This document shows positions 3,001-45,000 of a stretch of 64,000 nt of DNA, in pieces (the stretch's first letter is position 1; each line of letters starts with the position of its first letter). The notes under the pieces were generated by a model. It saw only the letters and a program-made list of their open reading frames with translations. It was not told where the DNA came from and made no database searches. The stretch is from an uncultured Planctomycetales bacterium (GTDB lineage: Bacteria; Omnitrophota; Gorgyraeia; Zapsychrales; JANLHA01). The stretch is from the NCBI GenBank assembly GCA_964374105.1, contig CAYJXI010000001.1, positions 135,743 through 199,742 on the forward strand, written 5' to 3'. The position numbers and the translations under genes were made by a program.

Positions 3001-6000
3001 CTTCTTATGAAATTGCACTGAGTATGATTCAACATGATTCCTTCACCTGGGCCAATGAATTTTATCAATATTACTTAAGGTATGATAGCGAAAAATTATC
3101 TGACTTTAAGAATGAATATGAGGACGCATTAAGAAAATTATTGTTCTATTACGATCAAGATTATGCTAAAGCCAAAAATATTGTCAAAGGGGTTGCTTGG
3201 ATTTTAGCCAAACCTGAATTTTTAGGTCCAGTCAATCATGAGGCTTTGAAGGACTGGGGAGAAGATTTAAGAACAGTCTTTAACATTCTTGATACTTTTG
3301 AAGGAAACACAGAAGGAATCGTTGAGATTCTCATTAACTATCTCAAAGCTAAGGATAACAGTCGTTGGGTCATTTATCAAATTTATAGAGCTTTGGATAT
3401 TTACTTAATGAGTGGCAAAGATAAGAAAGAAGAGCATCTGTTTAAGCGAAGCGTTGCTATTTTAAGATCTGACGAGGTTAAACACGTAGCCCAAGAAACA
3501 TTGATAGAAGAAGCTGAAAGAACAAAGAGATTGGCAGAAATAGCCAGGAGTCTTGAGCAACTATTCTTCCCGTCAGAGCCAGAAAATGACGAAAAGGAAA
3601 AGCCAACCCAAGGTTTCAATGGAGCATACCAAGGGACAAGAGAAGAATTGGTAAAGGCCATTTTAAAGAGTCAGAGGATCGATGTGTCTCCCAAGTTAGC
3701 TTCGATGATCGGTCGCCAGTTTAATAAAGGAAGTCCGGTTTATGAGGCAATCGCCAAATCTCACGGATTAAGGGCGCCACCTAGAAGGATTGACAGAATT
3801 GATGTTGTTGATTTAGGCATCGATTATCGATCCGTCCTTGTTGCTCTCGGATTTTATGAACCTCAAATTACATTTGTCTTAACTCCATCCTATTATCGTC
3901 GTTTAAGAATTTTATCTCTCCTACAATTTATTTTTGGTGTAAAGCACATTTTTGATTCTCATTTGAAGATTGTATTGCGGCATGAAGTCATTGAATTCCT
4001 TGTAAGGGATCATCTGAAGGCTAAACAGATTGAGGAGGGCTATCAGTTAGCAATAAAGTCTTCAAAACTTATTGATTTTGTAAAAGGGCCGCAGCGAACG
4101 ATGCTCATTCACTTCCCGTGGCAGGTGATGAGCAAACTGAGTCGTACGTTCACTGCGGCCTTAAATTTAATGAAAGGGCTGTTACAAAAACTGCTCAATA
4201 CCATTCCGTGGCTGGTGAGGGGCAGGCTATCAGCTGTTAGTTATCAGCTGTTAGCTAAATTTGTAACAGCCCTTAGATTTGCTAAGTTCCCATTGCTTTT
4301 GTTTATTTTCATTAGTCTTTCCTTTCCAACGAAATTATTGGCCCAAGGTGTTTTTGAAGAATTTGCATCCACTCAAAGTTCAATGCCATTAGTCTTTAAG
4401 CTAATTTTGGTCGGGGTGGCATTAGGTTTGATAGGTATCGGATTAATGGTTTATCTGGCTTCAAATGATGCAAAAGGATATCTCAAACAAATAGATCACT
4501 CTCAGATCAAAGAGGGTAAACCCAGAATCCTAAGGATCATTCATTCTCTTAGAATAGGTGGGATGGAAAATAAGTTATTAGAACTGGCTAAGCATATTGA
4601 TACAAATGAATTCAACCTCATTATCTTGACGCACGAGAGTCAGGAGCAATATTCGGAGGATATTGAAAGGGCCCGGAGCCGAGGCATCCAATTTATTTTC
4701 AAACGTCCACAAGTTAATATTAGAGGGTATTCAGGGAAGGTGAAGATCATGAGGTTATTCCTACGATTGATTCCTTACCTTAAATCTACCCTAGTTGAGT
4801 TGATGTTGTATAGGGCCCTTAAGGCCGAGGTGATCCACTTTAGCGGTCCCGGCGGGTTAAGTTACCTGATTAAGAAAATATTGGCGAGATTCTTGGCCCG
4901 TATCCCGATTCTTTTAACAACCTATCATGGATTCCCGGTCATTAAGAGAGAAGGTTATCTTGAGCGATTTGGTAAGACGATAGTCCTGCTTTATACGATT
5001 TTGACTGTCTTTGGCATGCGTTATTTGGATCATGCCTTGATTGCCTTAACGGAAAAAGAAAGGAAAGCCCACATCGAAACAGGTGTCCCTCCCCAAAAGA
5101 TCTACGTGATCCCCAATGGGATTGATTTAAGAAACTTTGAGAATATTGCAATGCCAACGGGAATCTCTTCGTTAGATTCGCGGCTGATCGAAATCCTTGC
5201 AAACGAGAACAACTTGATTATAGGAACTGTGGGAAGGCTCCATTTTGTTAAAGGCCATGAATATCTGATCACGGCAGCTAAGCAGATTTTGGCAGAGATT
5301 CCGAATGCCTATTTCTTTATCTTCGGAGAAGGAGAGATAAGAGGGAAACTTGAAAGCCAAATCAAAACTTTAGGTTTAGCGGATCGATTCTTTATCCCAG
5401 GGAATATTTCCCATGATGATGTGCCCAAAGTCCTTTCTTTAATAAATATCTTTGTTCTTCCCTCTTTGAGTGAAGGGATGCCGACCGTCGCTATGGAAGC
5501 CATGGCTGCGGGACTTCCCATTGTTGCCAGTCGTGTTGATGGGATTCCGGATACAGTTGGACAAGAGGCAGGAATCTTAGTTTCCCCCAAAGATTCATTG
5601 GCTTTGGCGAAAACGATCATTCATCTTGCAAAGAATAAAGAAGAAAGAGAAAGAAGAGGTGTACTGTTAAAACAACGAGCCTTGGAATTATTCAGTATAG
5701 AAAGGATGACACGACAATATGAGGAGCTGTATAAAAGATTATTAAGGATTCAATATTTAAAGAGTCAGGAAGGGTGGATCAACCGTTGGTTTGGCCGAGG
5801 AGTGGCTGGTTTGATGTTAATCCTTGCCTTGCCAGTGATGGGCTTGATTGCCTTAGCTATCAAACTGGATAAGCGACATTCTGGAACGGTTATCTTTAGA
5901 CAAAATAGAATCGTTGGATACTACACCGATGGAAAGCCGATCACCCAAGAAATCATCAAATTCCGTACTTTGACAGTGAGTCCCACCGAAGGATTGGGTG

Positions 6001-9000
6001 CTATTCAAGGAATCGAAAATCGCATTACACCTTTAGGTCGTTTCCTGCGTTATCTGCATTTAGATGAATTGCCGCAGTTATGGCAGGTTGTGAAAGGGGA
6101 TTTAAGGTTAACCGGCTTCCGGCCACGGGCCTTGGCCGTAGAAAAAGAAACCGGTACAAATATTTTCCAGGAATGGCGTGAACTGTTGATTCAAAATAAT
6201 CTGTGGGCCGGGGTGATTCCCCCTGGCATGCTTCGAAAATACAGGTTGCTAAAGAGAAGTCAAAGGAGAGAAGATCCGCATCTACACAAGGTAGAGATCG
6301 AGGCGATCACGCATTCGGCCTTTTTGAATCATTTATTCATCTTGGGAGAACTTGGGATTTATATCATCTTAAAGGTCTTTAATGGCTTGATTGCAAGTAG
6401 GGCAAGTGATGTAGGGGTGCTTCGGTTAGAGGAGAGGGAATTTGCAACAGCTTTGGCGGATCGTCGTAAGTCAGGGGTAACTGAAGAAAGTATCATACAA
6501 GCGCAAATGAAGTTGAAAGAGTACGGGATCGTTTCTACCCCAACTCCACTTAATGGAATCGTAGGATTAAATGATTTTGTCAATCAAGTCCTCGGCCGCA
6601 ACAAGGAAAACGACGTGAAGGTCTACCTCAAAGACGAAACCGTTAATCCAACCGGTTCTTTCAAGGACCGTGCCCCCATTCAAGTATATCTTGACGTTGA
6701 ACTGGTGCTTAACGGTGAGATCAAGAAAATGTTTGTCCTGTCTGTCTCTACTGGCAACCACGGCCTGGCCGTTGCCCATGCGGTGAAGACTGTTATTGAA
6801 CATTTCAAGAAAGAATATCCAGACATCAAGGACCGGGTTGAGGCCCGGGTTTATATGTCCCAGGGTACGTTGGTTCATAAACGCGAGAATATCCGCAAAG
6901 AGGACGGAATCGTAGTGACCGAAATTAACGGCCAGAAGATCAGAAGTTATGAGGACGGAGAAACTGAGGTCTTCCGCCTCGTGAAGGAAAACGGCAAGGG
7001 TTATATCCAAATCCGTCATGCCGACAAGTACGTGGTTTCCGGCTATGCCACCATTGCGGTTGAAATCTTGAAACAACTCGAAGATCGCGGTATCAAGCTG
7101 GCACAAATCCAAAATGGCGAGGTTGTCGTGATTTCACCGATGGGATCAGGGGGACTTCTGGCTGGTCTTCTTCAGATGACAGCCCGTTATCCGGCGGTTC
7201 ATGGGTATGGCATCACCGCCAAGCCAGCGGACATGACCTTTCGCTCGCTATTAATCGGGGAGGCGATCCGCGAGGTGGTGGAGTTGGATTACGAGGTTGT
7301 GGTTGACGGCAATATGGCCACAACGGAAGAATTTGCTTTGAAACTGATTCAAGGTTTGGGTAAAGGAGCGTTTCTGGTCAGCGAACAGGATGCCCTCATG
7401 GCCACCGCCTTGTTGAGGCACTTTGGGATTGTGGTTGAACCCACCTCGGGATTACCTTTGGCCGGGCTTTTAATATTCGCCGATCAAAAAGAACAATTGT
7501 TAACCGAAGCTCGTCATCTTATCATGCCGCTCACCAGTAAGAATTTAAGTGAAGAAATGAATGAAAAAATTAAAGGCCTCTCTAAAGATTTAGGAAAGAT
7601 TTATGAATATTTCCTTGAGCGCAGGAAACAGGTAAAGGACGAAAGCAGGGACAGCCCCTACTTTTCAGCTGGAAAAGTAGGAACAGCCCCTACTTTCCAC
7701 AAATATTCAACATTATACTCTATGGATGCTTTTGTATTGCTGGCTGTTGCAAGCATAATGGCGCTGGTTGGTCTGGGACTTTTTGCAAAATGGATTTTAA
7801 CAAAGAGAATCAAAAATCTTATTGGGAAAGATAATGCCCTCTTAAAACGACTCAATCAATTAATGACTTTGAAAGACAAGATTGTCTTTGTTCCCTTCCG
7901 GCGAAAATTACAAGAGCTTTATACGCAAGGTAAAATTACATTCTCCAAAGGTTTAGGACAGTATTCGCAATTTATCTTAAACCGCATGGCCTTTGAGTTA
8001 GTGATGATTTATCCCAAACCGCCTTTGCAGGAGATGAGGGTTAACTGGACTTCTAGAGAAGCATCTGGATTTTCCGGACAGTTTGACCGATTGGGTCGGT
8101 TCCATTATCAGGTGACCATTGCTCAAAAAAGAATTCCCCAATCAGGTGTTTATGACAAAAAGTTTGATTACACCGTTGGTGCTGCCGAGTCTGGCCATTT
8201 GGCGCAAGCGTATTTGCAGGATGTTTTGAATTATCCCGAAACATATCAAGGTCCCGGGGCGGTTTATATGACGGGATTGTCTGAGGCAATTGAACATTTA
8301 TCCATCAGATTGTACAAATCCCTTAATTTCAAAGTCGAAGACTTCTTTAAAGATGACACTGAGTTTGATCCACATCTCTTCCTGGCCCTAAGACAGATTA
8401 ACGAAGGGTCTCTGCTTGATCCAACGTTGGTGGGTGTTGGAGCCCATGCCTATGGGATTATTATCGCCAATAAGATCAGCGAGAAACTTAATATATGGAA
8501 GCAACCTCATCAATATCGTTATAGAAAACTGACAAGATATCTGAGAGCTTATATGCAGCTTTTAATCACGGTGGATTCTTCGGTTTTAGTGAAACCCGCG
8601 GATGCGGAGTTGCAATTATTAGTTGGATTTCTGTCAGCTGTTCAAAAGGCTATCGAGAGGATTTTTGAAGGGCAAGTTGCCAAGATACAAATTTTGAAGT
8701 TAATCAAGAAACTTGACAGAGTGAATTTTGAAAAGTTGTTTGAAAAACCGCAAGTTCAAAGACTCTTTGAGCGAGGGATTAAAGAATCGGAATTGACAGA
8801 ACTTAAGACCCTGTATCAAGAGCTGAAAGAGATTGATTGGGAGGCTTCCGAAGCCAAAATACAAGCGATACTGGAATTACAAAACATTAAGAGAGTAATG
8901 GAAGAGATTCACCAAAGGGTGATTGCCCCATTCCAACAAAAAGCGAGAGATTTTGTGGAGGATGAAGTCAACAAAATCCTTGCCATCGATTCACCTAAGG

Positions 9001-12000
9001 TGTTGTTGACAAGGGCAAAGAAGGTTCTTCAAGAAAAATCCGCATCCCATGACAAGGATGAACCGAAGGCTAGAGAGGCGGCGGAGGTATCAGGCAACCT
9101 TGACGACCAAAAGGTACATTTGGGCGCCTGGTCAGGTGAACCGCTCTTTAAGGATCTCGAAGCTGAGGGTTATGTTAAGGCCAAGGTTAAGGTCGGACCG
9201 TTTGAGTATCCTGTTTATCAAAAGGGTGAACAAAGGCTTATCGTCAAGACAAGATCACACATGTGGTTTGAGGCGTTTATTGAACGCATTGCCTTTGAGG
9301 TGGCGCAGCGCGTTCGTATCGAGACAGCCGGTATTTGGTTTGTGAAAGATAAAGAAGAACGTATCTTACGTGCCCGAGAATACTGGCCAAACAGCGAGGT
9401 CCTTTCCCATCGAGACCCGATATCTGAGGAGATTATTCATGAAAGCGAATTAGCGAAAATACAGCCGGAACTTAAAATGGTGTTCCCATCACAGGTCAAT
9501 TATCCGGCCTGGCTGCCGCATTTGGCCCGGCCAGAACAATTTATTGGTTCTGATATTTTAAGACAATTTATGCAGGTTGGGGATTCCTGGGATCCGAAAC
9601 AAGTACTCATAAAACCAGTGAGTCGATCTGCCGAAGGCAAGCAATTTTATGAAGCCAGGTTTATCGATTTTGAACATGGGATGGTCATGATTATTCTGGG
9701 TCCGGAGACATTGGTCGCTTTCTTACAGGAGAATAGTTTATTATTGAAACACCACACCCGGCCTGTCTTAGAAAGGTTAGCCAATATTACGGATGAGGAA
9801 ATTGACCGTTTGATCTCTTCGGTTTTCCCTGATGAATTAGCCTCGGTAGCACAGGGTGAAGACATGAGATCATACGCGGATGTTAAGTCAACAGTAGCCA
9901 GCGGCTTAAAGACCAGCCGCGATATTGTGCGTAAATATCTGCCACAGATTAAATCGGTACCGGACATAATCGTTGATGGGACACAAAGGCCGCAAGATGC
10001 CAAGGGCTCGATCGCAGAAGGCTTAAGAACATTCCTAAAAGAGTTTAAAGATCGCTCAGTCACTTTACAAGAGTTCCGTTATAAACGTTTAACCCCTCAA
10101 GGCAGTCCGTACAGTGACACCACCATTCGTATGGAATTGAAGATGCTTGAGTTGTTGGGATTGATCTTTGTTGATCGATCGCTAAGATCTTATCGCTACC
10201 AATTGATTGAGGAGGTGCGCAATCTCTCACCGCCAGATTTGGAAGAAATACTGCAGGCCCAATGGTTGCAAAAATACAAGCTTTCTAGTCTTGGTTTGGT
10301 GGCCGCAAGACGCGATGTTCATAAAATCCTTAACCGTAATCGTCCTGCCGATTGGATTCCTGTCTGGCCAAGACAAATCCCTCGTAAGACCAAAATCGAT
10401 CGAGAAGAATTAGAGCAAATCACCTCTAAATTAAAGATGCATATTGAAAATTTGGTTAAGAATCATGATAGCCAAATGAAATTCAGCCACGATGAGACTA
10501 TTGAGATTCTTGTCTCTGCTGCTGATATTGGTTTCCATTTTGGTTTAACCGCGCCAGAGATGAAAGAACTGTTAGAAATGGCAGAATTTTTTGTAGATGC
10601 TACCGAGAAACCAAAGGGAGAATGGATCCCGCTTGACTTTATCAGTCTGATACGAATGACCCTCATCATCCTTAATCAAGTGAGGCTTGTTTACTTGGGC
10701 TGGATTATTGATTTACATCCTAAGGAAGGAGGAATACAAATTCATGAAGTCATGTCTTTTGATTTGATTTATTCTGAAAATCTCCCGCTTATTTTGGCTA
10801 CGATAAAAGATTATAGACCGGAACATCACCTTGCTGCATTCGAGTCTCCCCTTTATATCTTTTTGGATCAAGATGTCTTTGTTCATGGAAAACTTATCAA
10901 AGAAGAAAAAGAAAAATTAGAGAATCTCCCGAATTACATAAGGATGGAATATCCTCAATTGTCTCAATTCGTCGATTGGGTGAAAAATTTTAGTAAGGAA
11001 GAATTTATGGCCTTGGAAAGAAAACGGGTTTTATTTGAAGAATGGACGCATTATTTACAGTATCTAAGGATTAAAGATAAGCAGGATTACTATTTAAAGA
11101 ATCAACTGACAAGGGAGGAGCGAGGCGAACTTATCGAGAGAATCTTTAGTCTTGAGCAAAAAATAAAATTAGTCCGTTCGGTTAAAGAGGAACTTTTGGA
11201 AACAGTTGAGAATCTTTCTTTAACTGGTCAAGAACTCTTCAGTCTCATAGACGAAACCCATTTGGCCCTTGTTCGGATCTTATATGCTCAGTCGATAAAT
11301 GATTTCTATCTTACTTTATTAGAATTTATTATCAAGAGTCGAATTTATGAGGGGATTCAGTACCGGACAGATGAGAATTATATTACCGCTGCCCAGATTG
11401 TCTTAAAGAACCTGGTTCTTCACCTTTTTAGGAAAGAGTCTTACCATCGACCGATGATCGAACTGGTTAATGAGATGATCTCTATACCTTTGGAACAATT
11501 ATGGAAGAGAGTGAGAAGACTTACTAAACTGAGTCACAAGTCATCCCTCGCTAGCGCTCCCCGGCCCGCCAGTCACGAAAGCCGGGGCGGGCGGGACAGG
11601 CAAGTCAGACCCGCCCGCCGGACGGGCAGGAGTCAGAAGATCACAGGTCACCTGCCTCGCCGGCAGGCAGGCGAGCCACGGGTCACGGGACATGGAAGTG
11701 ATCCTGCTAAACCCAGAAATGGTTATCGGCCCAGCCAGGTTATAAGAGAATTTAGCAGGTTTAAGAGAAATCATTTTAAAGGCTTTAAACCAAATTATAA
11801 GTTTGATGATAAACAAATAGAGACTTGGATTAACACCAATATTGAACTGGCGGCGGTCTATTTCCGCAGTAAAGAGAATTATGCCACAGTGGAAAGACTC
11901 CTAAAGGCGGTCTTTGAGGAAAGGCTGCTTTGGGGTGAAAATCATATCTTCTATGGCGCTAATAATTACAACGGTCGCAACGAGGATGGGGCGATTTATT

Positions 12001-15000
12001 TGGTTGCGATCAATGACAATCCTTATTTAGCCGAAACCCTAGTGCATGAATTTTCTGGTGGTCGCCACAAGCAAAATCGGAAAGCCGAAGAAGATTTTCG
12101 TGATTGGTATCGCAGACAATCGCAGAAAGAACGCCCGCAATTTATCGAAATCAAAGGCGGCGATTACGATCCCGAGGCTTGGGCCAATCAACCTTTAACT
12201 TTGGCGGTTGTGGCTTGGTCTCATTACCAGGAGTCTAAAGAAATATTATCCTTCAAGCCAGGCGAGGGTATTAAGAAGCCTAGGCCGTCTCAACAATCGG
12301 AACTTTTGATCAGTAAGAAGGCTTTAACTTCAATTCGAGAGCAAATTGATCAAAAGCTACAAAGTGCTCAAAATAGCATAACCCTTGCGGTTGCCGATGG
12401 ACGAGAAATTGAATTTACAATACACGAAATTGCTGGACAAAAGTTTCTCATTCAAAAAGATTGGGGTGCGCAGGTAGGCCTCTCTGTGGAGATGTTGGTT
12501 TTGGCGATTCAAGATATTGCTTCAAGCAATCGGTATTGGAAAAAGGTAAGAAATCATCAACCCTTTGTCATTATGCCTCTTAATCATATCTATATCTTTG
12601 ACCATCAAACGGGAAATCTGCGTGAGGCCTTGGCGGCCAGCATTACCAGTCACAAGGTCATTGTATTACACGAAAAATTGCCCGAGATATTGGTTGAAAT
12701 TCAGAATAACTCTGCCGCCAAGAAGGTGCTGGGGACATTGGTGTGGCATTTATTGCGTTATGAATTTGTGGAAGAAATTATGAAAGCGGAAACTGATTTT
12801 ATGCTCGCTCAGGAGGACTTTAAATATTTAATGGGAAGGAGTCCAAGATCATCCCAACTTTCCGGTGCGCGAACAATCAGATCTCTCAATAAATTAGGTG
12901 TATTGAATCTCACTTATGTCCCCGTAGATATTCTGGGAGACATTTTGGGATTTAGCTCTGCCTACAATAAACGGATTGTGACAGTTCTCAAACAACACGG
13001 CATGCGCACCATCCGTCAGGTTCTCGAAAGACCCTTAAAAGATTTAACGGAAATCCGGTTTGGCGGTAACAGCCAGGAGGCGGTTATGGCCATCATCCAG
13101 GCCTTAAGATTCTATGGCTGGGTCTTGCCCAGTGATTTAGGCCAATGGTGGGAGGTGATTGAAAAATTAGCGAGAAAAGAAGGCCGCCAGCGGATCCCAT
13201 CCTATCAATATGCAATCGTCCGTTTAGCCGAGATCGCTCCCGCATCCGTAGCCGTCCTGCGTGTCCTCAAAGAACACAAAGAGTATAATGTCTCAACTCG
13301 TTTGAGGGTTATTCACCGTTTAGGACGAATTGATCAAAAAAGCCTTGATGCATCACAAATCAAGATCATTGTTTATGTCTTGGGGCAGGCGCTTTATCAA
13401 GAAGAAAGAGATGATCTGAGACTGGAATTGGTAAGAAGCCTGGTTAATTACGGCAAGGATGCCTTAGAGATTTTAAAGACAATCCTTCGCACATCGGATA
13501 TGTTTTCAAGGGAGTTTATCATTCGGGCTTTATCAAGAAGCAAAGAGACGATTGATTTACAATCATTGCTAGGTGATAAGGAGGAAGATGAACCGCATGC
13601 CATTACCTCACAGTCGCAATTCCATGAAGTAATGAAAGCTATCCGAAAAGGAAATCTCAGACTCGCCAGATGGTTTGGCGTTTTGGGATATGCCTTGAAG
13701 ATTCTCGAGGAATGGATAGCCAAATCCGGACTCATGACTGGCCCGCCGGAATTCGGGAATTCAGTTGCCTATCGTACTTACGATGGGAAGATTATCAGAA
13801 GACTTTCCCACCAGCAGGTTCAAGAAATTCTTAAAACCCACCAGTTTGATGATGAATTAATCCGTATCATTCAAGAACAGATTGATCTGCACGAAGCACA
13901 ACCCACCGAACGCAAGGCTATTTTAGCCCAAAGAAGGACCTTACGAAGACTGATCAAAGAAAGGCGAGTAGAAGCAGTTTCAAAACCCCTTGATTCCCTC
14001 CCCCTTGTGGGGAGGGCTAGGGAGGGGGAGAATTTACAGGATTCACCCTCCCCTAACCCCTCCCATCAAGGGAGGGGAAATAAAAAGGAAGCACTTGATT
14101 TCGAGGTTATGAAACCAGTTCTAGTCACAAATTACCCTGGCCTGGCTGCCAGGACAGGCGGGTCATCCCTCGGCTTCGCTCGGGATAGGCAAGTCACAGC
14201 TCGGGGCTTCTTCGCTCAGAAACGTTTGAACGCCAAACTGCCCGTTCATCTCTGGGAGATTCCATTAGGAATAACACAAGAAGATAAGGTCGCTATTGAA
14301 TCTATCATTTCTAACAATGAGTTTGATGCGGTGACACTCACTGAGCGTCCGGTGAGTGATGCCTTTGCCTCGGTCCGGCGAGTTATTTGGCAGATGAGAG
14401 AGCACATGATTCAGGGACGCTGGGTTCAATTCAAGGAATTCTTATCCGCATTGAAGGAATCTTTGGTTAAAGTATTTAGTGAAAAGGCACGCCGCGACAG
14501 TCTCAATACATTAGTTGATCTCCCGCTAAACGTGGAGGCGGTGTTGCACCTCGGCGCCCAGATGCATGGACGCCAGTTCCTAAAGAAAAGAATCCTCAAG
14601 GCGCAAATATTGGGTGCGAAGGCTTTGCTGGTATTTTCTGGCGGTGGGTTCTTCCAGCGATATATCGTTAAGACTCCTATGGGTCGGTTACTTAAAGCCT
14701 CGGGGATTTATGATCTCTTCCAGCGCATGGATGCGGTAAGAATCATAAGACTTTTAGGTGAGATGCAATCACGAGGCGAGATCACAAACGATCTACCGAT
14801 TTGGATTGTGGTTAATCCCAACGAAAAAGACCAACAGCGGGAATTGGCAGCCCTTCAGGAGAAATTAGATGAATTAAAGAAATTCCGATTCCAAAATGGT
14901 CAGCTTGTTAATGTCGCCATATTAACCCAGCCCTCATTGTTTGCCTTAAATTGGAATACGGATCGAGGTCACTGGCAGCCGACATCTCAAGAGCAAGACG

Positions 15001-18000
15001 AATTTAAAAACTTCTTCTTAAAGGCTGAAGAGCGAGGATTGCTTAACAGCATTCCGGTGATCTTCGGCATGCCGAACTTTTTGTCCCTTTATAATGTCGA
15101 TTTCTGGATTTATCTGGTGGGAAGAAAGGTCAGCAAGGATCGTGCGGCTAAACAATTGTACGAGGTCTTTAAGGAGGCAGACTTAAAAGATGAGAGATTA
15201 GCACAATCAACAAGCCAGCCCAATGTTCATTACGAATTTATCCATCGCCGAAACCTCTGGGCACAGGCGGCCATTAACTACGCACAGGATTTGGCCAAAG
15301 AGCTAAGTTCCACTACCAGCGGCTTTATCTTCCAGCCGGCCACCCGCAAGGCCAATATCCCATCTGTTCAAAATCAAATGAGAGAAACCCAATTAACCGC
15401 GGTTGAGCGCGCCTATCCGGATTTGATGAGACTCACTTCTCTCTTAAAGGAGAAAGGAATTGAATTAAATCTCAATTTGGCTCATCTCGACACTAAGCGA
15501 TTAAGGACACTACGCAATTTGTTGATTGAACTTAATAACGAAAAGCCGAGATTCTTTGAGTTGAGCTTAAACGATAAGGCGGTCTTAAACATCTTACAGG
15601 CGAATCCGGTTTTGGTGGATGCGATCAGTGAAGCGATCAGTCATTTAGGCGTAAGGGTTGAATTTACCCCGCATCTTAAGGAATCAAAATATACAAAGAT
15701 CCTTTACGAGGCGCTTTATGTAGTCTGGCGGGCGCTGTATTTCTTAGAGGCTCAATACCGTCCAACGCGCATTCGTGTTGGGGTCATGACACATCCCCGG
15801 CAGACCTTCCAAATCAATGTGGCGGCCCGGCGGTTTATGGTCAGAAACGAAAAGGGTCAATTGAAAGATACCGGGCGCTGGGAATTGCCGATTAATCTTG
15901 AACCGTTTATTATCCATTTGAATGAAGAGGTCATGCTTAATAGTACAGTCTTCGGTGAGGAAATTGACAAGATTTTACAGCGCATTGTCAAGAATGAACC
16001 GATGAGTAAGGGTGGAACTTTTATCGGGAGCGGTCAACCCACGCGCCTCAAAGACAGTGTGATTTGGAAGATCGGCCAGTATTTCTGGGAACTGCACGAT
16101 GAATTCGTGAAGGTCACCAGCGGCAGGGAAGATTACCGCAGCCGTATCGGCGGCACACCGGATAGTGTTGAGGAATTTGTCCATTATCAGGTTGATGCGA
16201 TTTTTTCCGAGATGGTATTGCCGGCCTTAAGAAATAATCGGCAGGTATTTTTGCGCAGCATTGGTCCTGGCGTTCCAGACTTTGATCGCAAGGCCTTGGA
16301 TCGAATCGCGGCACTGGCTCAGAAAGAAGGAATAAGTCTTAAGAAGTTTGAATATGTCTTTGAAGATAAATCGGCAAAGGTCATCGAGAATATCAAGGCT
16401 GTTATCGGCTTAGAAAAAGATAAAAAGACCGGTATTCGTGTCAAGTATGTGACAAGGGACATCAAGGAAACATCTTCGGATATTATCGATCAAGAATCGG
16501 TCAGTGTGGTGCGTATGGCTAATGTCTTGGGTGTACTCGAAACCGACCGCATGGCCATTATTGACGGCAAGATGTATCAGCATGAGGTCATAACGCATCT
16601 GCCGCCAGGTTTTGACGAGGAGTTAGCCGCGGCTTATAGTTTAGACAAAGAAAAATTGATTCGTGACCTTAGAAAGCTAAACGATGAAGAAAGTGTTAAA
16701 TCATTCTTTACCGAGTATCGAGGTTTGATTGGCGATCATCACCGATTCTACCAGTTCTGGCAGGCGTTCTGGGGCCATGAGGATAAGCCGCATACCGGTA
16801 TCAAGAATGAAGAAATCTTGGTGGAGATCCCGCAAGAGAAACTCAAGGACTACGCTTTCCTCAACGATGAGGTGCTTAAAGATTCCGGTGAGATCTTGGT
16901 CGAACTCTTACAAGAGGTTCCCGAAGGGATTTCTGATATTCGGTTCTTGACTTCTAACGGGGCTATTGAGGCCCTGCTGAGACAATTAAATGTCGCAAAG
17001 TCGGTCAGGGAAACCAATGTCATCGTAACCGATCAGCGGTCGTTCTACAATGTCCGCCGCATAACGGTTCTGCATAAATATGATGCCTCGATGGCGGGAT
17101 GGATTAACGGTGTTACCTTGATTAAGGCTATTGAGCGTAAGTTTCAGAATAACGTCCTCATTAATATTCAGTCAGTGGCTAAGCTGATACCCGGCATGGA
17201 TTCCTTTAAACGCTGGTTGCATATACAAGTAACAAAAGATCCGCTTAATGTCAGCGAATGGTTGACAAGCTTTAACTTACCGGGCGGCCTGCGGGAGTGG
17301 ATCTTTGAAACAGGGACGGGATTTAATAGTCTTCGCACTTGGTGGAATGATAAGAAGCGTCGTTATCCGCATCAAGGGGTGGATTTGGCTAAGTATTTTG
17401 ATGGGGAAGGAAATATCCGGGCAGTTGTGCCTGGGACAGAGATCCCATTGATTGCGGATGGCGAGGTTGTCCGAATCATTGAAAATGGCAAGACGGAAGA
17501 ATTCGACTACATTGGTCAGACCGTGATTGTTCGCCATAATATTATGAATTATCACGGTGAGTTTTTACATTCGAGTTTCGGTCATATGAATCCAGTGGCT
17601 GGCTTGAGGTTAGGTCAGTCCTTAAAGCGGGGCGACACAATCGGCAACGTTGCCGATAGCAGAACCCGTGGCCTGCGTGTCGCCTCGCACCTGGATTTCA
17701 CTTTATTCTGGGCGAAGGCGGATGTGGATTATACAAGGATCAATTGGAAGGTGATTAATCAACGAGAACCAATCCTAGGGCTGGTGAATCCGCTGCCTCC
17801 AGATTCAAGCAACAAACCAATAGATCCTGCCAAGCCGCGTGAGGGAAGAACTGAGGCAGAGGTTGTAGCTAGGTTCAATGAATTAAAGAAAAGGAATTTC
17901 AAAGGATTCCCTGCGATTTATCCGCATAATATCCCGGATTGGGTCTTAATGGTTTTGGGTTATTACAACTATTCGGGTGATCTTGTTCGCTATGGAAAGT

Positions 18001-36000: not shown

Positions 36001-39000
36001 AAGTGAAGGTCGATGATGATTTTGGCCCCTTTGTCGAGATCTCTGTGGAGAAGGATGGCAAGAGAAAAGTCATAGGAACGAATTATTGGATTGCCGAGGC
36101 CGTCAGGCAGCATAACATGCGTGTAAACTTAAACCGTTTGGCTTTAATTGATTTTGTTTTAGGCCGGACCAATATTCAGGGGTTGCCTATTAAACCTAGG
36201 CCGTATAGGCATTTTCGGCCTGTCATAGATGTTGGCCAGATTCAATTAAGGGCAGGGCCGAATCGTGCCATTTATATTTATGGGTTAAGAACATTACGCG
36301 GAAAGAAGCTGATATTTATTCCGAAGACAAGCCAGAAAATTCCCGGAAGGTTTTTTGCGGTCCATGATATCGAAGAATATAAAAAGAACAGGAAGCGTGA
36401 CCCTGACGTGATTCTGGTGAGGGATGCCTTGGCCAAGGCCCTGGTTCTGTTAGAGAGAAGAGAGGTGCAGTTTATTGATCCGCGCGAAGAGGTCATTGTG
36501 TCGAAACGGGGATTGGAGCCTTATTTTAATGCGAAGGCCGTCAAGGAAAGCGAGGTCTTATTAAGAAAGATTATTGCACAGGCGAAGGGAGAGGGTGAGG
36601 TTGTTATCGAAGGCATTCATTTTTATCAGAAAAGGAGACAACACCGCAGCAAGAAGGCGGTTATGGTCAAGTGGGTGTTCAAAAGGGCTGATATTCTCCG
36701 GGTGGCGGACATGATGGGCTGGGAGGTTAAGGGCAAGGTTATCGGCGCCTTCACACAGGAATTGAATGTTGATCGAAATATCGTGTATATCATTTTTGAA
36801 AATCAATTAATCAAACAAGAAGGTTCGTTTGCAGAGTTTGGTGCCCAGGAACTCCAAGGATATCCGAATGCGGTGGTGAAGAGCGTCTATACCGACACCC
36901 GCGGTGTGCTCATCCATGGGGGTGTTGTCTGGTGGGGCGCGAGACCAGATTTAAAGAACCGCCGCCATATTACCCTAGAATACCGGGAAGGGAAGCCGTA
37001 TCGGGCGTGGAACGGCGACCGTTATCCTACGGACCGGCTGGATCAGCCGGATGATCGTATTAAGTCGATTATCATCGAGCCCGAATTGACACCCCAGGAA
37101 ATTATCCTGTGGGATCAGGGGAAGATTGATTTGACGCCGGGCCGGATGATGGAGAAGGAGATTTCCTGGGTCAAATTTAAAGGAGAGGAAAAGGTCCAGC
37201 TGAGACTCCATGGCGGCAGCCTCGGAGAAAGGAATTTGATTGTTCCCGATGAACATCTGGCGAGGATGAGGCACGAGAAGATTGAGAGGATAGTTATCGC
37301 CACTTTTGCCGATGAGAATCTGGGATTGCTTTTAGGTCTTTTTGCTCCGGAAGATTATCGTCAATGGCTTAAAGGGGATCTGACGGTTGTGCCGCTCAGT
37401 GTCTATGCGTATTCTCAAAAGCGCAAATCTGCCCGGCTGGCTGAACCGTTTATTATGGATCTTTATCAGTTAAGTCAAGGGAAGCCCATTAAGGTTCGGC
37501 CGGACGGTAGTCCTTGGAAATATCGGAAGACCAAGGTCCATATTGTTATAAGCGATAGCCCCAAGAATCCCATGACTGTTTACTTAGATATGACGTTACG
37601 GAATTTTGATATCAAATCCATACGTTTGAGTATACCTCCCGAGAATATAAAGAAATTGAATGTTCATCGGGGAGACGAACTTATCGTGGCCATCATTGAG
37701 GACTTAAACCACGGTCCAGTGGCTTTAATTTACCGCGGCCAGGATTTTGATCCCGAGCATCCCGCATCATCAGCCAATCTGCTGTCGACTTATACCTTTG
37801 TTTATGGTAAATGGCGGACGGTTGATTTAGCGGTTCTGGATATTGTCGCCTTTACCGAAGGTCGGAAGGATCTTGTGGCTGCCGACCGACGGTTAATCAA
37901 AAAGGTTTTTATTTTTAAGGAAGGCAAAGGGGCTGTCCAGATCTATCTTTATGACAATAACAAGCGGATAAAAGATATCGTCTTTTCGTTTACGGCAGAA
38001 GATGTAAATCAATTTAATTTGAGGAACCAACCGGGTATTACTGAATTAAAGATAGATACGGATTACGGGCCTTACATTGAATTTTCTGTTGAGGAGGATG
38101 GGAAAACCATTGTGATTGGCACCAACATCTTCTTTGAAGAAGGCGAGAGGAGAATCGTCCGCATGGATTTAGACAAGCTGCGATTCATTGATTATATTTT
38201 AGGAAAAACAAATATTCATGGGCTTCCCATAAATCCGACGCTTTATCGTCATCCTTATGTTGTGCCTAAGGCAGGCGCAGTGAGTTTGCGCGAACGGGAG
38301 CAGACGGTCGTCATCCGCGACTTAAATTCGCTTATCGGCCGTCAAGTTATCTTTATCCCCGAGGTCCATCCTAAATACGGCTGGGTATTTAAGGTTCATG
38401 ACAGCCAGCAATACATCAAGAACCGTCTGCGTCACCCAGAGGCCATTTTAGTAAAAGCCCTTGAAGGAAATGCCTTGATCTCTCTTCAGAAACTGGAGGC
38501 TGATATCATCCATCCGGAAAGGGATGTGATAATCTCGCAGAAAGGATTGTCGGCTTATTACAGTAAAGCCGATACAGAAAATTTTGCAGCTCTCATCAAG
38601 AAGATCGAAGAAGCGGCGCAAGGAAAGACAGAAGTCACCCTAGAGGGTATCCCCTTTGTCAAGAAGCGATATGAGCATTATAAAGGACAAGGGTGGACTT
38701 TTGGCAAAGACGATATCTTCAATGTCGCTAAACTAATGGGCTGGAAGGTCAAGAAAGATATTATCCAAAAATCTTTAGAGGAAGAACTGCATAAGCTCTT
38801 TGAGGAGCAGGACCTTCTATTTTTGGCCAGTCGGTATTCCTTGGATATCAAGGACATCCTCTGGAAGCTGATCGGTTATCAGCTTAAGGGCCAATATGAT
38901 GAAAAGCAGATAGAATCTATTCTCAATCAGACGATTATTTCTATTATTAACCGTTATATCGAAACCAACGGCATTGATGAGGCCCTTAAGCACGCCCGGG

Positions 39001-42000
39001 AGCCGGAAGGAGAGATCGCCGCACCGCGGTTTTTAGAGGATGTTGATTTGTCGCAGGAAGATATTTCCAATATCGCCCGGCGCATGGATTACCGAATCAA
39101 ACGCCGGATTATTAATGAGGGTCTCAAAGGTATGGCGCGAAGCCAAGCGGTGGCGTTTATTAATAAGCTCGAGGAAAGGCATTTCTACAAGAATCATTTC
39201 AGTCCCCAGCCGGACCGCTTTACCTTGGAGAATGCCCGGCAGGCGGTTGAGGATACCCTGGCCCAAGAACAGGAGAGTATCGCCAAAGAAGCGCTGGCCC
39301 GGTTGCTGGAAGATGTCAAGGAGGCCTTGAGTCTGCAGTCCCAACTGCATGAAAAGGGCTTAAGCCGCAAAACCCATCTTAATCTTTATCAGCTGATGGC
39401 GGTCATGCGCATTGTTGAGAGAAGAAAGATTCTCTTATCCGATGAGATGGGCCTGGGCAAAACCTTGGAAACGATTGCCTCGTTTATCATATCCGATACT
39501 AAAGAGATGCTGGTTGTGGCGCCCAAGGCAGCTTTAAACCGTTGGATGGATGATCTGGCCAAACACACGGATATGGATATTGAACTGGTGAATCTGACCT
39601 ATGAACCGTTAGCGTTATCATTACAAGATAATGCCAGGATTAAAGTTGTGGAGATAGCGAAGGCTCGTAGCCGGTACAAATATCTTATGTCTCCACGTGC
39701 CCCACCCAAGAAAGGAAGAAGAGTTATCCTGATTAATTATCAAACCCTGCCGCGCCTGCAGAAGTTCAAGGAAAAAATAGGCCGCCACCAACCCATCACG
39801 ACAGAATTTGTTGCCCTGGATGAAGCCCACCTCATCAAACGCGCCAGCACCCGTACCGCCAAGGCTATTTTCGGTATCACGCAGATTCAGCAAGCCTTAC
39901 AGGCGGGCTATAAGGTCATGTTGACCGGGACTCCTCTTGAGAATGAACCTAAAGATTTATTTGTTTATTTGCGCTATCTGTCCCTCGGCGGCGATTCCCA
40001 TGCCGAGAAATTGTTCCAAAGCATATCGCAGAAGGAATTCGGCTTGATATTTAAGAAAACCGATATCGGCCGGCTGTCGATGCTTTCGGGATACTTGGCC
40101 GAGATGATGATACGACGCCTTAAAGATGATGTGGTTAAGGGCCTGCCGGAAAAACAATTCGTAAGGGTTAAGATTGAACCGTTGGCTAAGACGATGAATG
40201 TGGGGGGGCTCTTCAGCGTTGCCTTAGGCGGCGATTACCAAAAACAGATGGAACTCTATAACCTCGCCATGGACCGGCCGGATATCTTTGAGCATTATGT
40301 TGAGGAAGGGATATTCCAGAGGGAAGAGGAATTAAACGAGAATATGTTTGATGGTGATACCTCTGGTTTGTCTAAGGCCAGGACATCGCAGCTTTTGCGC
40401 CTGGAACAGACCGCGACTGATCCTTCGGTGTTTATCGAGAACGGGGTTATTGGAATCAAATTCGTTGCCGCGGCGCACCTGATTCAAGAACGGCTTAAAC
40501 AAGGAAGATTTATTCTAGTATTCACCGATTACAGAACAATTGCCGGGCATTTCCGTGACTATCTTCTTCGCCAGTTAGAGAAAGACACGAAATTCAGCCG
40601 CAATGACGTCGTTTATATCGATGGGACCATTACTGGACAGGCCCGTACACAACTCATGGCACGGTATCAGAAGGCTCAAGCCCATGTCATGATTGCCACC
40701 ACGGGCACCATGGGGGTCGCCAATGAACTGACCCAGACCGAAACAATTATCTTTTTGAACAATCCGTGGAAACCATCGAGTTTAGATCAGGCGATTGACC
40801 GGGCCCACCGTCTGGATCCCTTACGGAATTATCCTGGCAAGGTGTTAGAGATTATCCTTCTTGAATTAGATGTCGCGGTGTCGATAGATCATCTTAAAGG
40901 CATTGTCTTAAGAAGAAAGAGAATTTTATCCCGGATGATTGTTGACGGTGATCTTTCACCGGAGATCCTTAAGGCGTTTAAGGAAACAGATATCCGAAAG
41001 AGCATCATCCGCGAGATTGAAAAAGGTGACGTGGTTTCTCTCGATGAGCATGAGATGACGCTCTTACAGCAGTTCCGATTGCTTCTCTCGCAGGTTCTCC
41101 AAACCAAGGATCAGGCCGAAATGCGTGAGCTTTGGGATCAGGCCGCCCATATGTATCTTGAACTCTTGGAGCATAAAGGCTCCTTCTTTGCCAACATGGC
41201 TAACTTGGAGTATTTAAGTGATCCCAAGCACGGCGAATTAGAAAGACTCTTCCCGCAGGCCAAACAGCGGCCGCTGGTTGTGGTCGATTTAGGTTCAGGG
41301 CCTTCGACATTACAGCGGGCGTATGAACGCCTGAGCCAGCGCGAGAGCTTTAGGCAAAGAAGATTTACCCTGCGTATCAAGGATTACGATATCAGCCCCC
41401 GGATGCTGTCTTTGGGTATCCACCGTAAAGACGAGCAGATTGTCGGGACATTTGAAGATTTGGATAAGGCCTTTAAAGAGGAAAGCGTTGATATGGTCAA
41501 TATCTCTTTTGCCTATCGCTACATGTCTAATCCGGCTAAGGTCCTTAGGGCGGTACATAAGATTCTCATCGATAGTGGGATTTTAACTTTGATTTTGCCT
41601 AAGAGCAACAAGATTACAGAAGAATTTATCCAAGCCTTAGTTCAGCTTGGTTTTGTTATCAAGGTCGGCAAAGGCGCGAAACTACAGTCGCAGTTAGATC
41701 AGGAGACTTACAATAAACTCCGTCACGAGTTCGGCCAGGAATTTGCCAATGATCTGGCGGATGAGGTCAAGGGCGAGTTTACTTATCTGGTGGCCGGCAA
41801 GCAAGGGGTTCCTGCGCCAAATCTGTCCGTTGAAGAGTTGAATAAACAATTGGTATTGACCCGAAGAAAGCCGGTCGCGGTAAACAAAGAAAAGGTTAAG
41901 AAATTCATTTTTGATAAGGCCAAGACCATGATCCTGCCACCAGAAGGGGCTGTTGAAGGCAAAGTCGTTTATTACCAGGATTTGGTTAAGACAGAAATGA

Positions 42001-45000
42001 ATCAAGATATAGAGACGCAAGCAGGACAATCGGTGCCAGCCACCACCAATCATCTTTATCAAAAACTGGTTACGGCTATTAGCCGGATCTCGAAACTGGC
42101 CCATCGTTATCAGACATTAAATGCTATTGAACCGAGGTCCCTGCGAAAGAAAGAGGTTATCAATCAGAAGATTGAAAAGAAATTCGGTTTATTAAGACAG
42201 CAGATTTTAGAAGGGCTAAATATTCTGAAAGATGATGAAAGAAGGGATTTGTTAATTCGATTGGCTGCCTTAAAAGAACGCGACAGGGTTAGACAATGGT
42301 TTGAGGATTATCAGCCGCTTGTCGACTTGATGGATGTTGTTTCAGCCAGTACGACAGAGGAAAACGGTAAGGCATTGAGTGAGACAGAAGACGATAATAC
42401 CCGACCGGACGCTGATCCCAGCCCCTTCACTGGCATCCAGACACCTGGTCTTTTAGTGCGCTGGAAGGCTGAGTTTAAAGATATTCTTAAAAAGGGCGAT
42501 GAGAAGATTATCGAATATTTAAAAGAGCGCTCCTATGACGAGGAAGTCATGCGGCGTGTTTCGAGGCAGCCTGTGACACCGACCGAATTTGTGAAATGGC
42601 ACGCCCGTGTTTATGATGTCGCCAAAGGGAAATGGCGAAGACCGACTGTGGGGGATTTGTCTTATCTTTTCAGTCTGGCTAAGGAAACAGATCAGGCTTA
42701 TGAACATGGTAGGAACGAATTTTTTGAAACATATCTTTTTTCACCGATTATCGACATTGATCGAGAAAAGGTGTTGATGCAAGCCAACGAGGCCGGAATC
42801 CGGGCTGCTGCCCAAGTGCACTTTGATTACAACCAGCGTATCTTTAAATCCGGCCAAGGTATCCTGGCCATGAACCAAGATGGTTCATGGCTGGCGATGG
42901 CGGGGAAGAAAAAAGATAAAAAATATCGTAAGCAAAGACAACAAGATTTTCCTCACACATCTTCTTCAAAGGACCAATCCTTAGCTAATATTCAAAGCCA
43001 GTCACAGTCTCAACAATTTTCCACTTATCGACTGAGTGGAGGAGCAATCCTTTTAACCCGACTACTTCCAGAACAAATTCAAACTTTGGATAAGTATCCA
43101 GCCGTTGTCTATGAGGATAAGACAGGTCGTTTAAGAGTGAGACAACCCGTAAGAAGATACTTCATAGATGGAACTCCTTTAAGCAAGATTAATGAAATAC
43201 TAAGCACGCGTCTTGTAGAAACAATTACGGCCCTTGCTCAAAGATTCTCAAAACGAGTGGTTGTGGTTCTTGATTGGGGTGTGGGCAATGGAGTCGCATT
43301 ATCTCAGATAGCTGAGCAGCTTTTTCAGAATCTGACTAACGTACGATTAATAGGATATGCAAATCAGTATCTACCGGAGTGGCAATCTTATGATGAGCGA
43401 GTCACATTCGTTTTAGATGTCCTGGAAAAATTACCGATTTATTTCAATCCGGGAGAAATTGATATTATTTACAGTTCTTTTGGATTAGAGCAATTAAGAC
43501 CAAAGGCGCTTTCTGATCACCTTGTACAGTTAGCTCCACTCTTACATCCGGAAGGTGAGATTCGGATGACTAATCCTGGTCAACGTACCAGACGATATTT
43601 GGAACAACTACAAATTTACTTTACTATCGAGGGTGGTGAAAATGATTTAAAACAGCCACGCATTTCACCACTTGCACTCGTTTGGGCCCACGCGGTTCGC
43701 TTCACACTTAAGCAAAAACAACAAGAAGGTGACGGGCACTTGAAAGAGGGACAGGAAATGCAAGATAATACTCCGCCTGCCATGCAACCAAAGTGGCTCA
43801 TTAGGTTTAAATTTAACCGTGCCTTAAAACGCGCCGAGATTTCTCGGTTCCTTCAAGAAGCCGCATACAAAGAAGAAGCCAAGCGGACGGTCGGTTTTGA
43901 ACGTGCTCCACCGGAGAAATTCGTCAAAGCCCACAAACATGTCTACGATGTAAGAACAAGCAAATGGCGCAAACCCACCCAAGATGAAAAAGCACAACTT
44001 CTTGAACTGGCCCATCAAACAGACCAAACCTATCGAGAGGCCTTTGAAAAGGTTCTTCATGAAGCAAAACAAATGATCTTAACCGCGAGCACATTTAACC
44101 TTGGTTTCGAGATGTTCGCTAAGACCAGAGAAGTTGCGCGTGAAATCGGCATCGCCGCGGCGGCGAAGGTCCACTTTGACTACAACAACACTGTATTTAT
44201 GGCCCAGGAAGGCATCCTGGCCATGAACCAAGATGGTTCATGGCTGGCGATGGCGGAAGACCAACCTAAATACATAGAAGGTCAATTTTCTTTAGATCAA
44301 TGGAGTAGAGTGATGATTAACGGCAAAGAAAAAGACAGAGCGAGGGGATTGCGAAAGATGCGTTTGATTAATCTCCAAGATATAAGTCAGGAGGACTTCC
44401 TTTCCATTATCGCGGGATTAGTATCAACTATCACATCAAGGGCTGGCAAATCGAGAAACCGTATTGTTGCCGTTCGGTGGCTGAATAAGGTAATGGATAA
44501 TCTCGATTTCGCAAAATTTTCCTCTGAATTGAGAAAAAACATTGAAGGCTGGATCAATCTTTTGGGGGATGAACTGGAGCGTTATGGGCCGGTATCTTAT
44601 TATGTCCGAGGCGAGCTTGTTATTATTTTTGAGAAATACGGCACGATTTTAAGTGAAGAGTCTCAAGCGGTTTTATTCCACGTCATTTATCAGGCGATGT
44701 TAAAAGAACCACATCACCGAATACAGGAAAGAGAACTTTCAACGTTAATAACCTTGGTCCGCGGAACACCAAGGATTGGATTTCGATTTATGAACTCGGA
44801 TTTTGAGATATGGGTAGAAATGACAAGATCCGAGCTAATCGCGATATTATTCGGTCTAAATATTTTAGGCGAGGATAATCATTTCAGGCTTTTTGCGGCC
44901 TGGCTTTTGAGTTTTAGACAGGGCGATGATATTGCTCAAAAAGTAGCACTGTCAACTTTACCGTTGGCAAAAGAGGCTTTAAGTGACACAGATGAAAGAG

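Follow-up and report, generated by a model that had tools for sequence, protein, structure and literature searches.

Open reading frames (ORFs) of more than 20 kb are common in Omnitrophota (PMC10066038). Omnitrophota giant genes are among the longest known, and a protein of Velamenicoccus archaeovorus has 39,678 aa. Archaeovorins contain glycosyl transferase, methyltransferase and pyruvate-phosphate dikinase domains and many transmembrane helices (10.1101/2023.11.21.568195), and polysaccharide-biosynthesis enzymes and methylases have been reported in Omnitrophota giant proteins (PMC12419801). A catalogue of 916 proteins includes a "multi-enzyme metabolic cluster" class characterized by PF00534, PF08241, GNAT, HAD and HEAT scaffolding; 94% of this class have transmembrane helices or signal peptides, and 80% are sequence singletons (10.64898/2026.06.07.730766). 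The published catalogues list domains without dissecting modules. Here, we analyzed a 64,000-nt stretch of contig CAYJXI010000001.1 (assembly GCA_964374105.1, positions 135,743 to 199,742 of the forward strand), hereafter the window, which is read through by a single giant ORF. In this ORF, a GT4 glycosyltransferase, a phosphoglycosyl transferase (PGT) and a fold-type II pyridoxal-phosphate (PLP) enzyme follow one another. This three-enzyme block is probably an enzyme island within a giant multi-enzyme protein that threads through the membrane and is of the Omnitrophota type (archaeovorin or multi-enzyme metabolic cluster class). It adds an example to an oddity that is already known, and no second case of the triple arrangement was found in the collections searched.

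The giant ORF extends from nt 3 to nt 63998 of the + strand and comprises 21,332 codons with no stop, spanning the entire window. Residue n of the ORF corresponds to nt 3n to 3n+2, and all features described below lie on the + strand. The remaining five frames contain 872-1,693 stops each, which excludes chance as the cause of the open frame. TAA, TAG and TGA each occur 151-933 times in the other two forward frames, and none of the three occurs in the frame of the giant ORF. The longest complete ORF elsewhere in the window has at most 181 aa. The GC content at codon positions 1, 2 and 3 of the giant ORF (0.526, 0.334 and 0.46) is typical of coding sequence, and Pfam domains are spread along the frame. 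Since the frame is open at both ends of the window, the gene exceeds 64 kb.

A Pfam search of the whole translation recovered about 15 distinct families plus HEAT repeats. Apart from the block, these include an SNF2 helicase with Helicase_C followed by methyltransferases, a HAD hydrolase, a histidine phosphatase, and PEP-utilisers and PPDK N-terminal domains; the ABC1/kinase-like and GNAT matches are weak. Thousands of unannotated residues separate the recognized domains. A hydropathy scan revealed 22 hydrophobic peaks, 6 of them at 2.3 or above. The giant ORF thus resembles the giant protein of V. archaeovorus, the archaeovorins and the multi-enzyme metabolic cluster class in having more than 20,000 codons, scattered transmembrane helices, internal diverged repeats and unannotated stretches. 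Another shared feature is the grouping of glycosyl transferase group 1, methyltransferase, GNAT, HAD and PPDK-like domains into islands, with HEAT scaffolding.

The three-enzyme block accounts for about 5% of the giant ORF (a 1,000-residue stretch) and has no paralogue in the window by self-comparison. The initial annotation had described three enzymes concatenated in one frame between nt 4518 and nt 7490, namely a GT4, a PglC/WbaP-type PGT with its own membrane helix, and a fold-II PLP enzyme with an NPTGSFKDR lysine motif. Translation of nt 3003-9002 and four Pfam matches, all exceeding the gathering cut-offs, recovered the GT4, sugar-transferase and PLP domains with no in-frame stop between them. 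Structure prediction gave confident models of the GT4 and PLP modules and of the first 130 residues of the PGT. The three enzymes are indeed concatenated as described, but the frame continues through the whole window and the PLP module reaches approximately nt 7649. Each of the three modules is complete, its fold canonical and its core catalytic motifs preserved.

The GT4 module (GT-B, retaining) occupies nt 4518..5726 (aa 1506-1908). It opens with KPRILRIIHSLRIGGMEN, the first codon of which is at nt 4518 (aa 1506). PF13439 (Glyco_transf_4) matches aa 1518-1709 (E 6.5e-14, 52.8 bits, cut-off 28.5) and PF00534 (Glycos_transf_1) matches aa 1732-1884 (E 8e-38, 130.1 bits, cut-off 26.4). The E-x7-E motif reads SEGMPTVAME (E1824 and E1832, nt 5472-5498), and this column matches eight homologues. 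The AlphaFold2 model has a predicted local distance difference test (pLDDT) score above 90, and Foldseek superposed it on MshA, BshA, HepE and PglA with template modelling (TM) scores of about 0.8 (0.83 for PglA). The GT4 had also been said to retain the N-terminus of a free-standing enzyme. Consistent with this, a free-standing 434-aa GT4 (P0330, 44% identity) aligns from its residue 9, which corresponds to aa 1506. The NCBIfam model TIGR03088 likewise aligns over positions 2-374 of 374, but at 163.5 bits against a cut-off of 409. This standalone-like start follows from the first beta-strand of the Rossmann fold, which is obligatory in any intact GT4 domain.

After a linker of only 10-20 residues or so, a small PglC-like monotopic PGT occupies nt 5775..6317 (aa 1925-2105), as identified by Pfam, a PDB sequence match, the structural model and Foldseek. 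PF02397 (Bac_transf) matches aa 1928-2048 (E 4e-23, 82.3 bits, cut-off 27) and covers only positions 2-116 of the 179-position profile; the PDB sequence search aligned the module with PglC residues 21-121. A re-entrant membrane helix lies at aa 1931-1956, AGLMLILALPVMGLIALAI, with a hydropathy of 2.58. Its LALPV aligns with LTSPI of PglC, with the proline kept. The model draws this helix straight, and the kink proline is assigned from the alignment. Basic residues flank the helix on both sides, as expected if both ends are cytoplasmic. The Asp-Glu dyad, D2021-E2022 (nt 6063-6068), lies in LDELPQL and aligns with that of PglC. Moreover, LDELPQL, IKFRT, KGD and FRPR are conserved in comparison with 48 homologues and PglC. 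Modelled alone, the PGT has a pLDDT of 87-97 over its first 130 residues, and its only significant Foldseek matches are PglC (8e37/8g1n, TM-score 0.61-0.62, probability 1.0) and WbaP (8t53). The motif and fold results together place the module in the monotopic PGT fold; its catalytic core is intact and its C-terminus atypical. A hydrophobic last helix follows at nt 6318..6395 (aa 2106-2131; hydropathy 1.79), with an 8-residue hydrophobic insertion relative to the homologues. It is part of a 44-residue helix in the model, at low confidence, and its flanking charges are ambiguous; it may span the membrane.

The third module, at nt 6420..7649 (aa 2140-2549), is a fold-type II PLP enzyme of the serine/threonine dehydratase or racemase type. 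PF00291 (PALP) matches aa 2200-2491 (E 9.7e-32, 110.9 bits, cut-off 35), and homologue alignments extend to aa 2546-2549, about nt 7649. The Schiff-base lysine K2221 (nt 6663-6665) in NPTGSFKDR and the phosphate loop MGSGG are both conserved in homologues, in agreement with the motif first noted. NCBIfam ranks EutB and Ser/Thr dehydratases first, and the PDB sequence search points to serine racemases and threonine deaminase. At a pLDDT of about 95, the model superposes on human serine racemase 3l6b with a TM-score of 0.82, and on the threonine deaminases 8zkv_B and TdcB 2gn0 with TM-scores of 0.80-0.82. The module shares with serine racemases and dehydratases (3l6b, 6lut and 1ve5) the fold, the SFK lysine, the S-x-GNHG loop and the GSGG loop. 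It differs from them in being embedded between hydrophobic helices and in scoring below every equivalog cut-off (EutB, IlvA, TdcB, ThrC and CysK; for EutB, 76 bits against 413). PLP enzymes of O-antigen and glycosylation loci are fold-type I aminotransferases of the DegT/PglE kind. DegT (PF01041, fold-type I) is absent among the Pfam matches at E <= 0.01. The PLP module is thus of the dehydratase/racemase type, fold-type II, and not a fold-type I sugar aminotransferase.

The subfamily to which the PLP module belongs is small, and its members share a conserved extension of about 60 residues at the N-terminus. The module is 39-41% identical to its closest free-standing homologues, P0090 and P0334. 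Both start with a signal-peptide-like sequence, and P0334 has an ANA-Q cleavage-type site. Another homologue, P0371, joins a PALP domain to a HopBF1-type effector kinase. The signal-peptide-like starts and the kinase fusion hint that part of the subfamily might be exported; other members look cytoplasmic.

Predicted membrane segments enclose the block. A predicted transmembrane hairpin lies directly 5' of the GT4 at nt 4281..4466 (aa 1427-1446 and 1463-1488; hydropathy peak 2.62), and its flanking K/R charges fit an in-out-in path. A further predicted transmembrane helix closes the block at nt 7719..7793 (aa 2573-2597; hydropathy 2.59), and 4 K/R residues follow it on the C-terminal side. Read cautiously, these features would put the GT4 and PGT on the cytoplasmic face between membrane anchors. 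A transmembrane helix directly before the GT4 is also present in two fragments of giant proteins. One, P0331, is a 2,859-aa partial protein from a Candidatus Omnitrophota metagenome-assembled genome (MAG); the other, P0332, is a 5,767-aa fragment whose alignment crosses the hairpin and continues over the GT4. P0332 ends a few residues short of the usual GT4 C-terminus, likely through truncation at a contig end. A conserved cassette of PALP between two transmembrane helices was considered and rejected, because P0366 (an N-truncated Omnitrophota protein with a PALP homologue) and P0371 have no transmembrane helix before the PALP domain.

Bifunctional monotopic PGTs (Bi-PGTs) are treated as a recognized class in PMC10312794 (O'Toole et al. 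2021, cited therein). We found two free-standing GT4-PGT fusions of 601-604 aa (P0399 and P0439) with the same domain order, colinear with aa 1499-2086 at approximately 30% identity. Like these, the block has a GT4 followed by Bac_transf across a short linker, with the re-entrant helix and the DE dyad. Unlike them, it lies in a giant ORF, is preceded by a transmembrane hairpin and followed by a PLP enzyme, and has a divergent PGT C-terminus. The block also resembles Campylobacter PglC (8e37/8g1n) and PglA (8dqd), a small monotopic PGT beside a GT4 that would add the second sugar. Those are separate genes, however, identity to them is 17-23%, and the C-terminal part of PglC is not alignable. 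This part of PglC takes part in sugar recognition.

These likenesses suggest how the island might work. The transmembrane hairpin would hold the chain at the membrane, where the PGT would transfer a sugar-1-phosphate to polyprenyl phosphate at the inner leaflet. The GT4, tethered about 15 residues away, would then add the next sugar. On a single chain, the two enzymes would do the work of PglC plus PglA or of a bifunctional PGT. The PLP module would act separately on an amino-acid-like substrate; it has no detectable pathway link to the GT4 and PGT. As in CAD, AROM and polyketide or nonribosomal peptide synthetases, several catalytic domains that are separate elsewhere share one chain. Unlike these systems, the giant ORF has no carrier domains, no assembly-line logic and no single pathway, and it is larger and membrane-threaded.

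We then compared the modules with their relatives. In a HMMER search of aa 1506-2566 against 1.84 billion representatives, no protein among the best 150 covers all three modules. A word-indexed search of the whole block against 5.8 billion clusters gave GT4 matches only, at 34% identity or less over substantial coverage. A query of PGT plus PALP found one free-standing PALP (P0090, 39%) and many ordinary Lg-PGT catalytic domains, and no PGT-PALP fusion. A PALP-profile scan of 241 million metagenome records yielded ten loci, none with a GT4 or PGT nearby. The best of these, L091, is a free-standing cytoplasmic-type PALP gene, and among its neighbors, compared for matches to the giant protein, no other gene matches it. 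The genes listed for another free-standing PLP homologue locus (L001) include no polysaccharide genes. No GT4-PGT-PALP triple, fused or neighboring, was found across the protein representatives and contig collections searched. The main text of Nielsen and Lui 2026 (10.64898/2026.06.07.730766) does not mention PF02397 or PF00291, and the terms "sugar transferase" and "pyridoxal" are absent from the text of West-Roberts et al. (10.1101/2023.11.21.568195).

The partners of each module differ among relatives, indicating that the modules travel independently. The GT4 embedded in P0331 is 41-43% identical to ours and is followed by a cpYpsA domain rather than a PGT. The GT4 of the window is 41-44% identical to P0330 and P0331, in which no PGT is fused to the GT4, versus about 30% to the P0399 and P0439 fusions, so its junction with the PGT probably arose independently, inside the giant-gene lineage. 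A PGT next to the closest free-standing GT4 (L089) was also sought; the gene 3' of this GT4 is unrelated to PGTs.

A second part of the giant ORF behaves similarly. The SNF2 helicase plus methyltransferase module at nt 38736..42329 (aa 12912-14109) matches P0210 (GCA_964373555.1) with 48% identity and P0211 with 44% identity, in both cases over the full query. In two MAG loci (L003, 10001-13504, and L004, 46-4083), P0210 and P0211 each form a gene of their own, with 1,167 and 1,345 aa, respectively. Among the modules of the giant ORF, this one is the best guide to taxonomy. A profile scan of genome contigs with it gave only generic SNF2 helicases from many phyla, at 26% identity or less, and offered no taxonomic clue. 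A module of the giant ORF can thus be a separate gene elsewhere. Both this and the different downstream partners fit shuffling, and the most likely origin of the arrangement is an exchange of modules among giant genes rather than the recent collapse of a polysaccharide operon. For three separate modules, the closest relative that carries a name is a protein from an Omnitrophota MAG (P0211, which NCBI lists as "Candidatus Omnitrophica bacterium", P0331 and P0366); the window holds no marker gene.

Several alternatives were weighed against an enzyme island within a giant protein. The giant ORF could encode a polyprotein that is cut into separate enzymes, in which case the fusion would exist at the gene level alone. 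The full-length, self-contained modules and the separate SNF2-methyltransferase genes of two MAGs are compatible with this, and West-Roberts et al. propose that C39/S8 peptidases cleave such proteins (10.1101/2023.11.21.568195). However, Pfam detected no peptidase domain in the 21,332 residues, no search being aimed at cleavage motifs. Moreover, the GT4-PGT junction looks too short for a processed linker, and the same junction is found in uncleaved free-standing fusions. We therefore regard processing of this kind as unlikely.

The initial annotation had read the block as an operon whose intergenic regions and stop codons were erased, that is, a collapsed polysaccharide, O-antigen or glycosylation operon with its pathway fused in gene order. 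This view does not agree with the codon usage of aa 1501-2500, which is ordinary for the giant ORF (z = 0.3 for divergence and 0.6 for GC at third codon positions, GC3), with no seam or sign of recent insertion at the block. Promoter-like and terminator-like sites in nt 3500-8500 are at chance level (9 against 9.0 expected, and 5 against 5.2 expected, respectively). Nothing in codon usage or in these sites marks erased intergenic regions in the block. No triple operon or fusion was found in the 1.84 billion representatives and the contig collections, the neighbors of the closest GT4s differ, and the closest free-standing GT4 is not followed by a PGT. The listed genes of L001 without polysaccharide genes, and L091 without further matches to the giant protein, also argue against a collapsed operon, as does the block being a small part of a far larger ORF.

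The three enzymes had further been taken as ones that normally sit side by side in polysaccharide loci. This holds for the GT4 and PGT, a natural pair for starting a lipid-linked glycan whose genes are commonly adjacent, and a PglA-like GT4 is among the fold matches. It does not hold for the PLP module, which is of the dehydratase/racemase type and not a sugar aminotransferase. A collapsed operon would also account for modules that are as complete as free-standing proteins, N-termini included, for the very short GT4-PGT linker, and for the occurrence of the SNF2-methyltransferase module as a separate gene in relatives. Taken together, we consider such a collapse improbable. For an apparent fused operon, the extent of the open frame is worth checking first.

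It is just as improbable, in our estimate, that the modules are decayed passengers, catalytically dead folds that a giant protein of structural or adhesive function would keep as spacers or binding surfaces. All three keep their core catalytic residues despite identities of 44% or less to homologues, and the GT4 and PALP domains are modelled with very high confidence and can be superposed on active enzymes. Decay would account for the loss of near-invariant residues from the C-terminal third of the PGT and for its partial profile coverage. The NCBIfam scores far under the cut-offs and the lack of recognizable domains in most of the giant ORF point the same way. Finally, an artefact of misassembly, sequence errors or reassigned stop codons, for which no supporting point was found, has a negligible chance of being correct, given that all three stops are absent over 64 kb (one reassigned stop would leave the other two), that the codon-position composition is of the coding type and that dozens of significant domain matches lie in the frame.

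The reading as an enzyme island in an Omnitrophota-type giant protein also has points that weigh against it. The giant ORF is known from sequence alone and is incomplete at both ends, and the topology of the block was derived from hydropathy and K/R charge counts alone. The block as a query gave no match in genome contigs and metagenome contigs, and all homologues are at most 48% identical. In the C-terminal third of the PGT, the R..PGxTGxAQ, D..Y and LD motifs, at least 90% conserved, have been departed from. Only P-G is kept, and the R, T-G, Q and later D residues are replaced in comparison with the 48 homologues. The pLDDT falls to 52-72 beyond the first 130 residues. Activity or substrate of the PGT may therefore be changed. 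For the GT4 and PLP modules, NCBIfam scores are far below the equivalog cut-offs, so no substrate can be assigned. Unlike the published Omnitrophota giants, in which SecA-DEAD, peptidase and dockerin domains are frequent, the first two without being universal, no SecA-DEAD, peptidase (C39/S8 included), NUDIX or dockerin domain was found by Pfam in the 21,332 residues of the window, and an SNF2 helicase is present instead.

A different topology can be drawn for the second half of the block. The helix at aa 2106-2131 would lead outward, the PLP module would lie outside, and the helix at aa 2573-2597 would lead back in; we regard this path as doubtful. On the same reading, the module could be an exported fold-type II PLP dehydratase or racemase, with D-amino acids or keto acids, for example, as its products at the cell surface or a prey interface, which is similarly speculative. 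Equally tentative is the idea that near-absent cysteine would, in that case, mark a lineage of giant proteins built for threading or export in the unfolded state. The charge bias after aa 2597 favors the cytoplasmic side there, and the signal-peptide-like starts of the two closest free-standing PALP homologues and the HopBF1-kinase fusion P0371 are in line with this path. Against it, other members of the PLP subfamily look cytoplasmic and have cysteines, P0366 and P0371 lack the preceding helix, and the helix at aa 2106-2131 is of low confidence in the model.

Cysteine is indeed nearly missing from the giant ORF. Its 21,332 residues contain 2 cysteines, at aa 17469 (nt 52407-52409) and aa 19183 (nt 57549-57551), compared with approximately 300 expected from position-specific base frequencies. 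In the other two forward frames, TGT and TGC together number 446 and 815. P0210, P0211, P0366 and P0371 have no cysteine. The housekeeping neighbors in L003 and L004 mostly contain 0.5-3.6% cysteine, with two short ORFs lacking it, and other SNF2, GT4 and PGT homologues contain about 1%. P0331 and P0332 have a normal cysteine content, so cysteine avoidance is not general to giant proteins. The word "cysteine" is absent from the Omnitrophota giant-gene papers 10.1101/2023.11.21.568195, 10.64898/2026.06.07.730766 and PMC10066038. As a simple, testable signature, cysteine avoidance could help to classify giant proteins and constrain their export route.

The block offers a residue-level case of an enzyme island in which full-length, apparently competent enzymes would be anchored between membrane helices, and such islands appear to undergo reshuffling that involves both giant and ordinary genes. 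An active GT4-PGT pair would mean that the giant protein synthesizes lipid-linked glycans and is not limited to degrading them, a point of relevance to the proposal that giant proteins build or remodel the cell coat.

Some minor observations concern the remainder of the ORF and its relatives. In L003, the gene 5' of P0210 encodes intein and methyltransferase domains and is at least 3,908 aa long; the P0210 gene lies 27 nt 3' of it in the same frame, with a single TAA between them. We considered this TAA as an interruption of a giant ORF and rejected it, because a spacer of 27 nt and the ATG are what an ordinary boundary between genes would show. The P0210 gene is the last large gene ahead of ilv/leu/aro genes. 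Near the 3' end of the window, at nt 62226-63791 (aa ~20742-21263), a PEP-utilisers mobile domain precedes the nucleotide-binding N-terminal domain of PPDK, and a PEP/pyruvate-binding domain was not detected before the end of the window. In canonical pyruvate phosphate dikinase (PPDK), these two domains occur in the reverse order.

Self-comparison of the giant ORF revealed three families of diverged repeats. Three tandem copies of a unit of about 700 aa lie at aa 10863-12928 (nt 32589-38786), with 37-54% identity across alignments and no Pfam match. A motif of weak hydrophobicity, ATF(A/V)D..(L/H)G, recurs in each copy, and nowhere else in the giant ORF does codon usage deviate as much or GC3 reach as high a value. 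An unannotated unit of about 170 aa is present in more than 15 diverged copies at aa 9480-10835 and 14117-16762 (nt ~28440-32505 and 42351-50286). In aa 14117-16762, these copies alternate with methyltransferase, kinase-like, GNAT and HAD domains every 350-450 residues in a spacer-like manner. The third family, a unit of about 150 aa with 27-43% identity and no Pfam match, recurs at six distant sites: aa 7704-7873, 9028-9178, 18277-18422, 18798-18965, 19235-19442 and 20473-20614.

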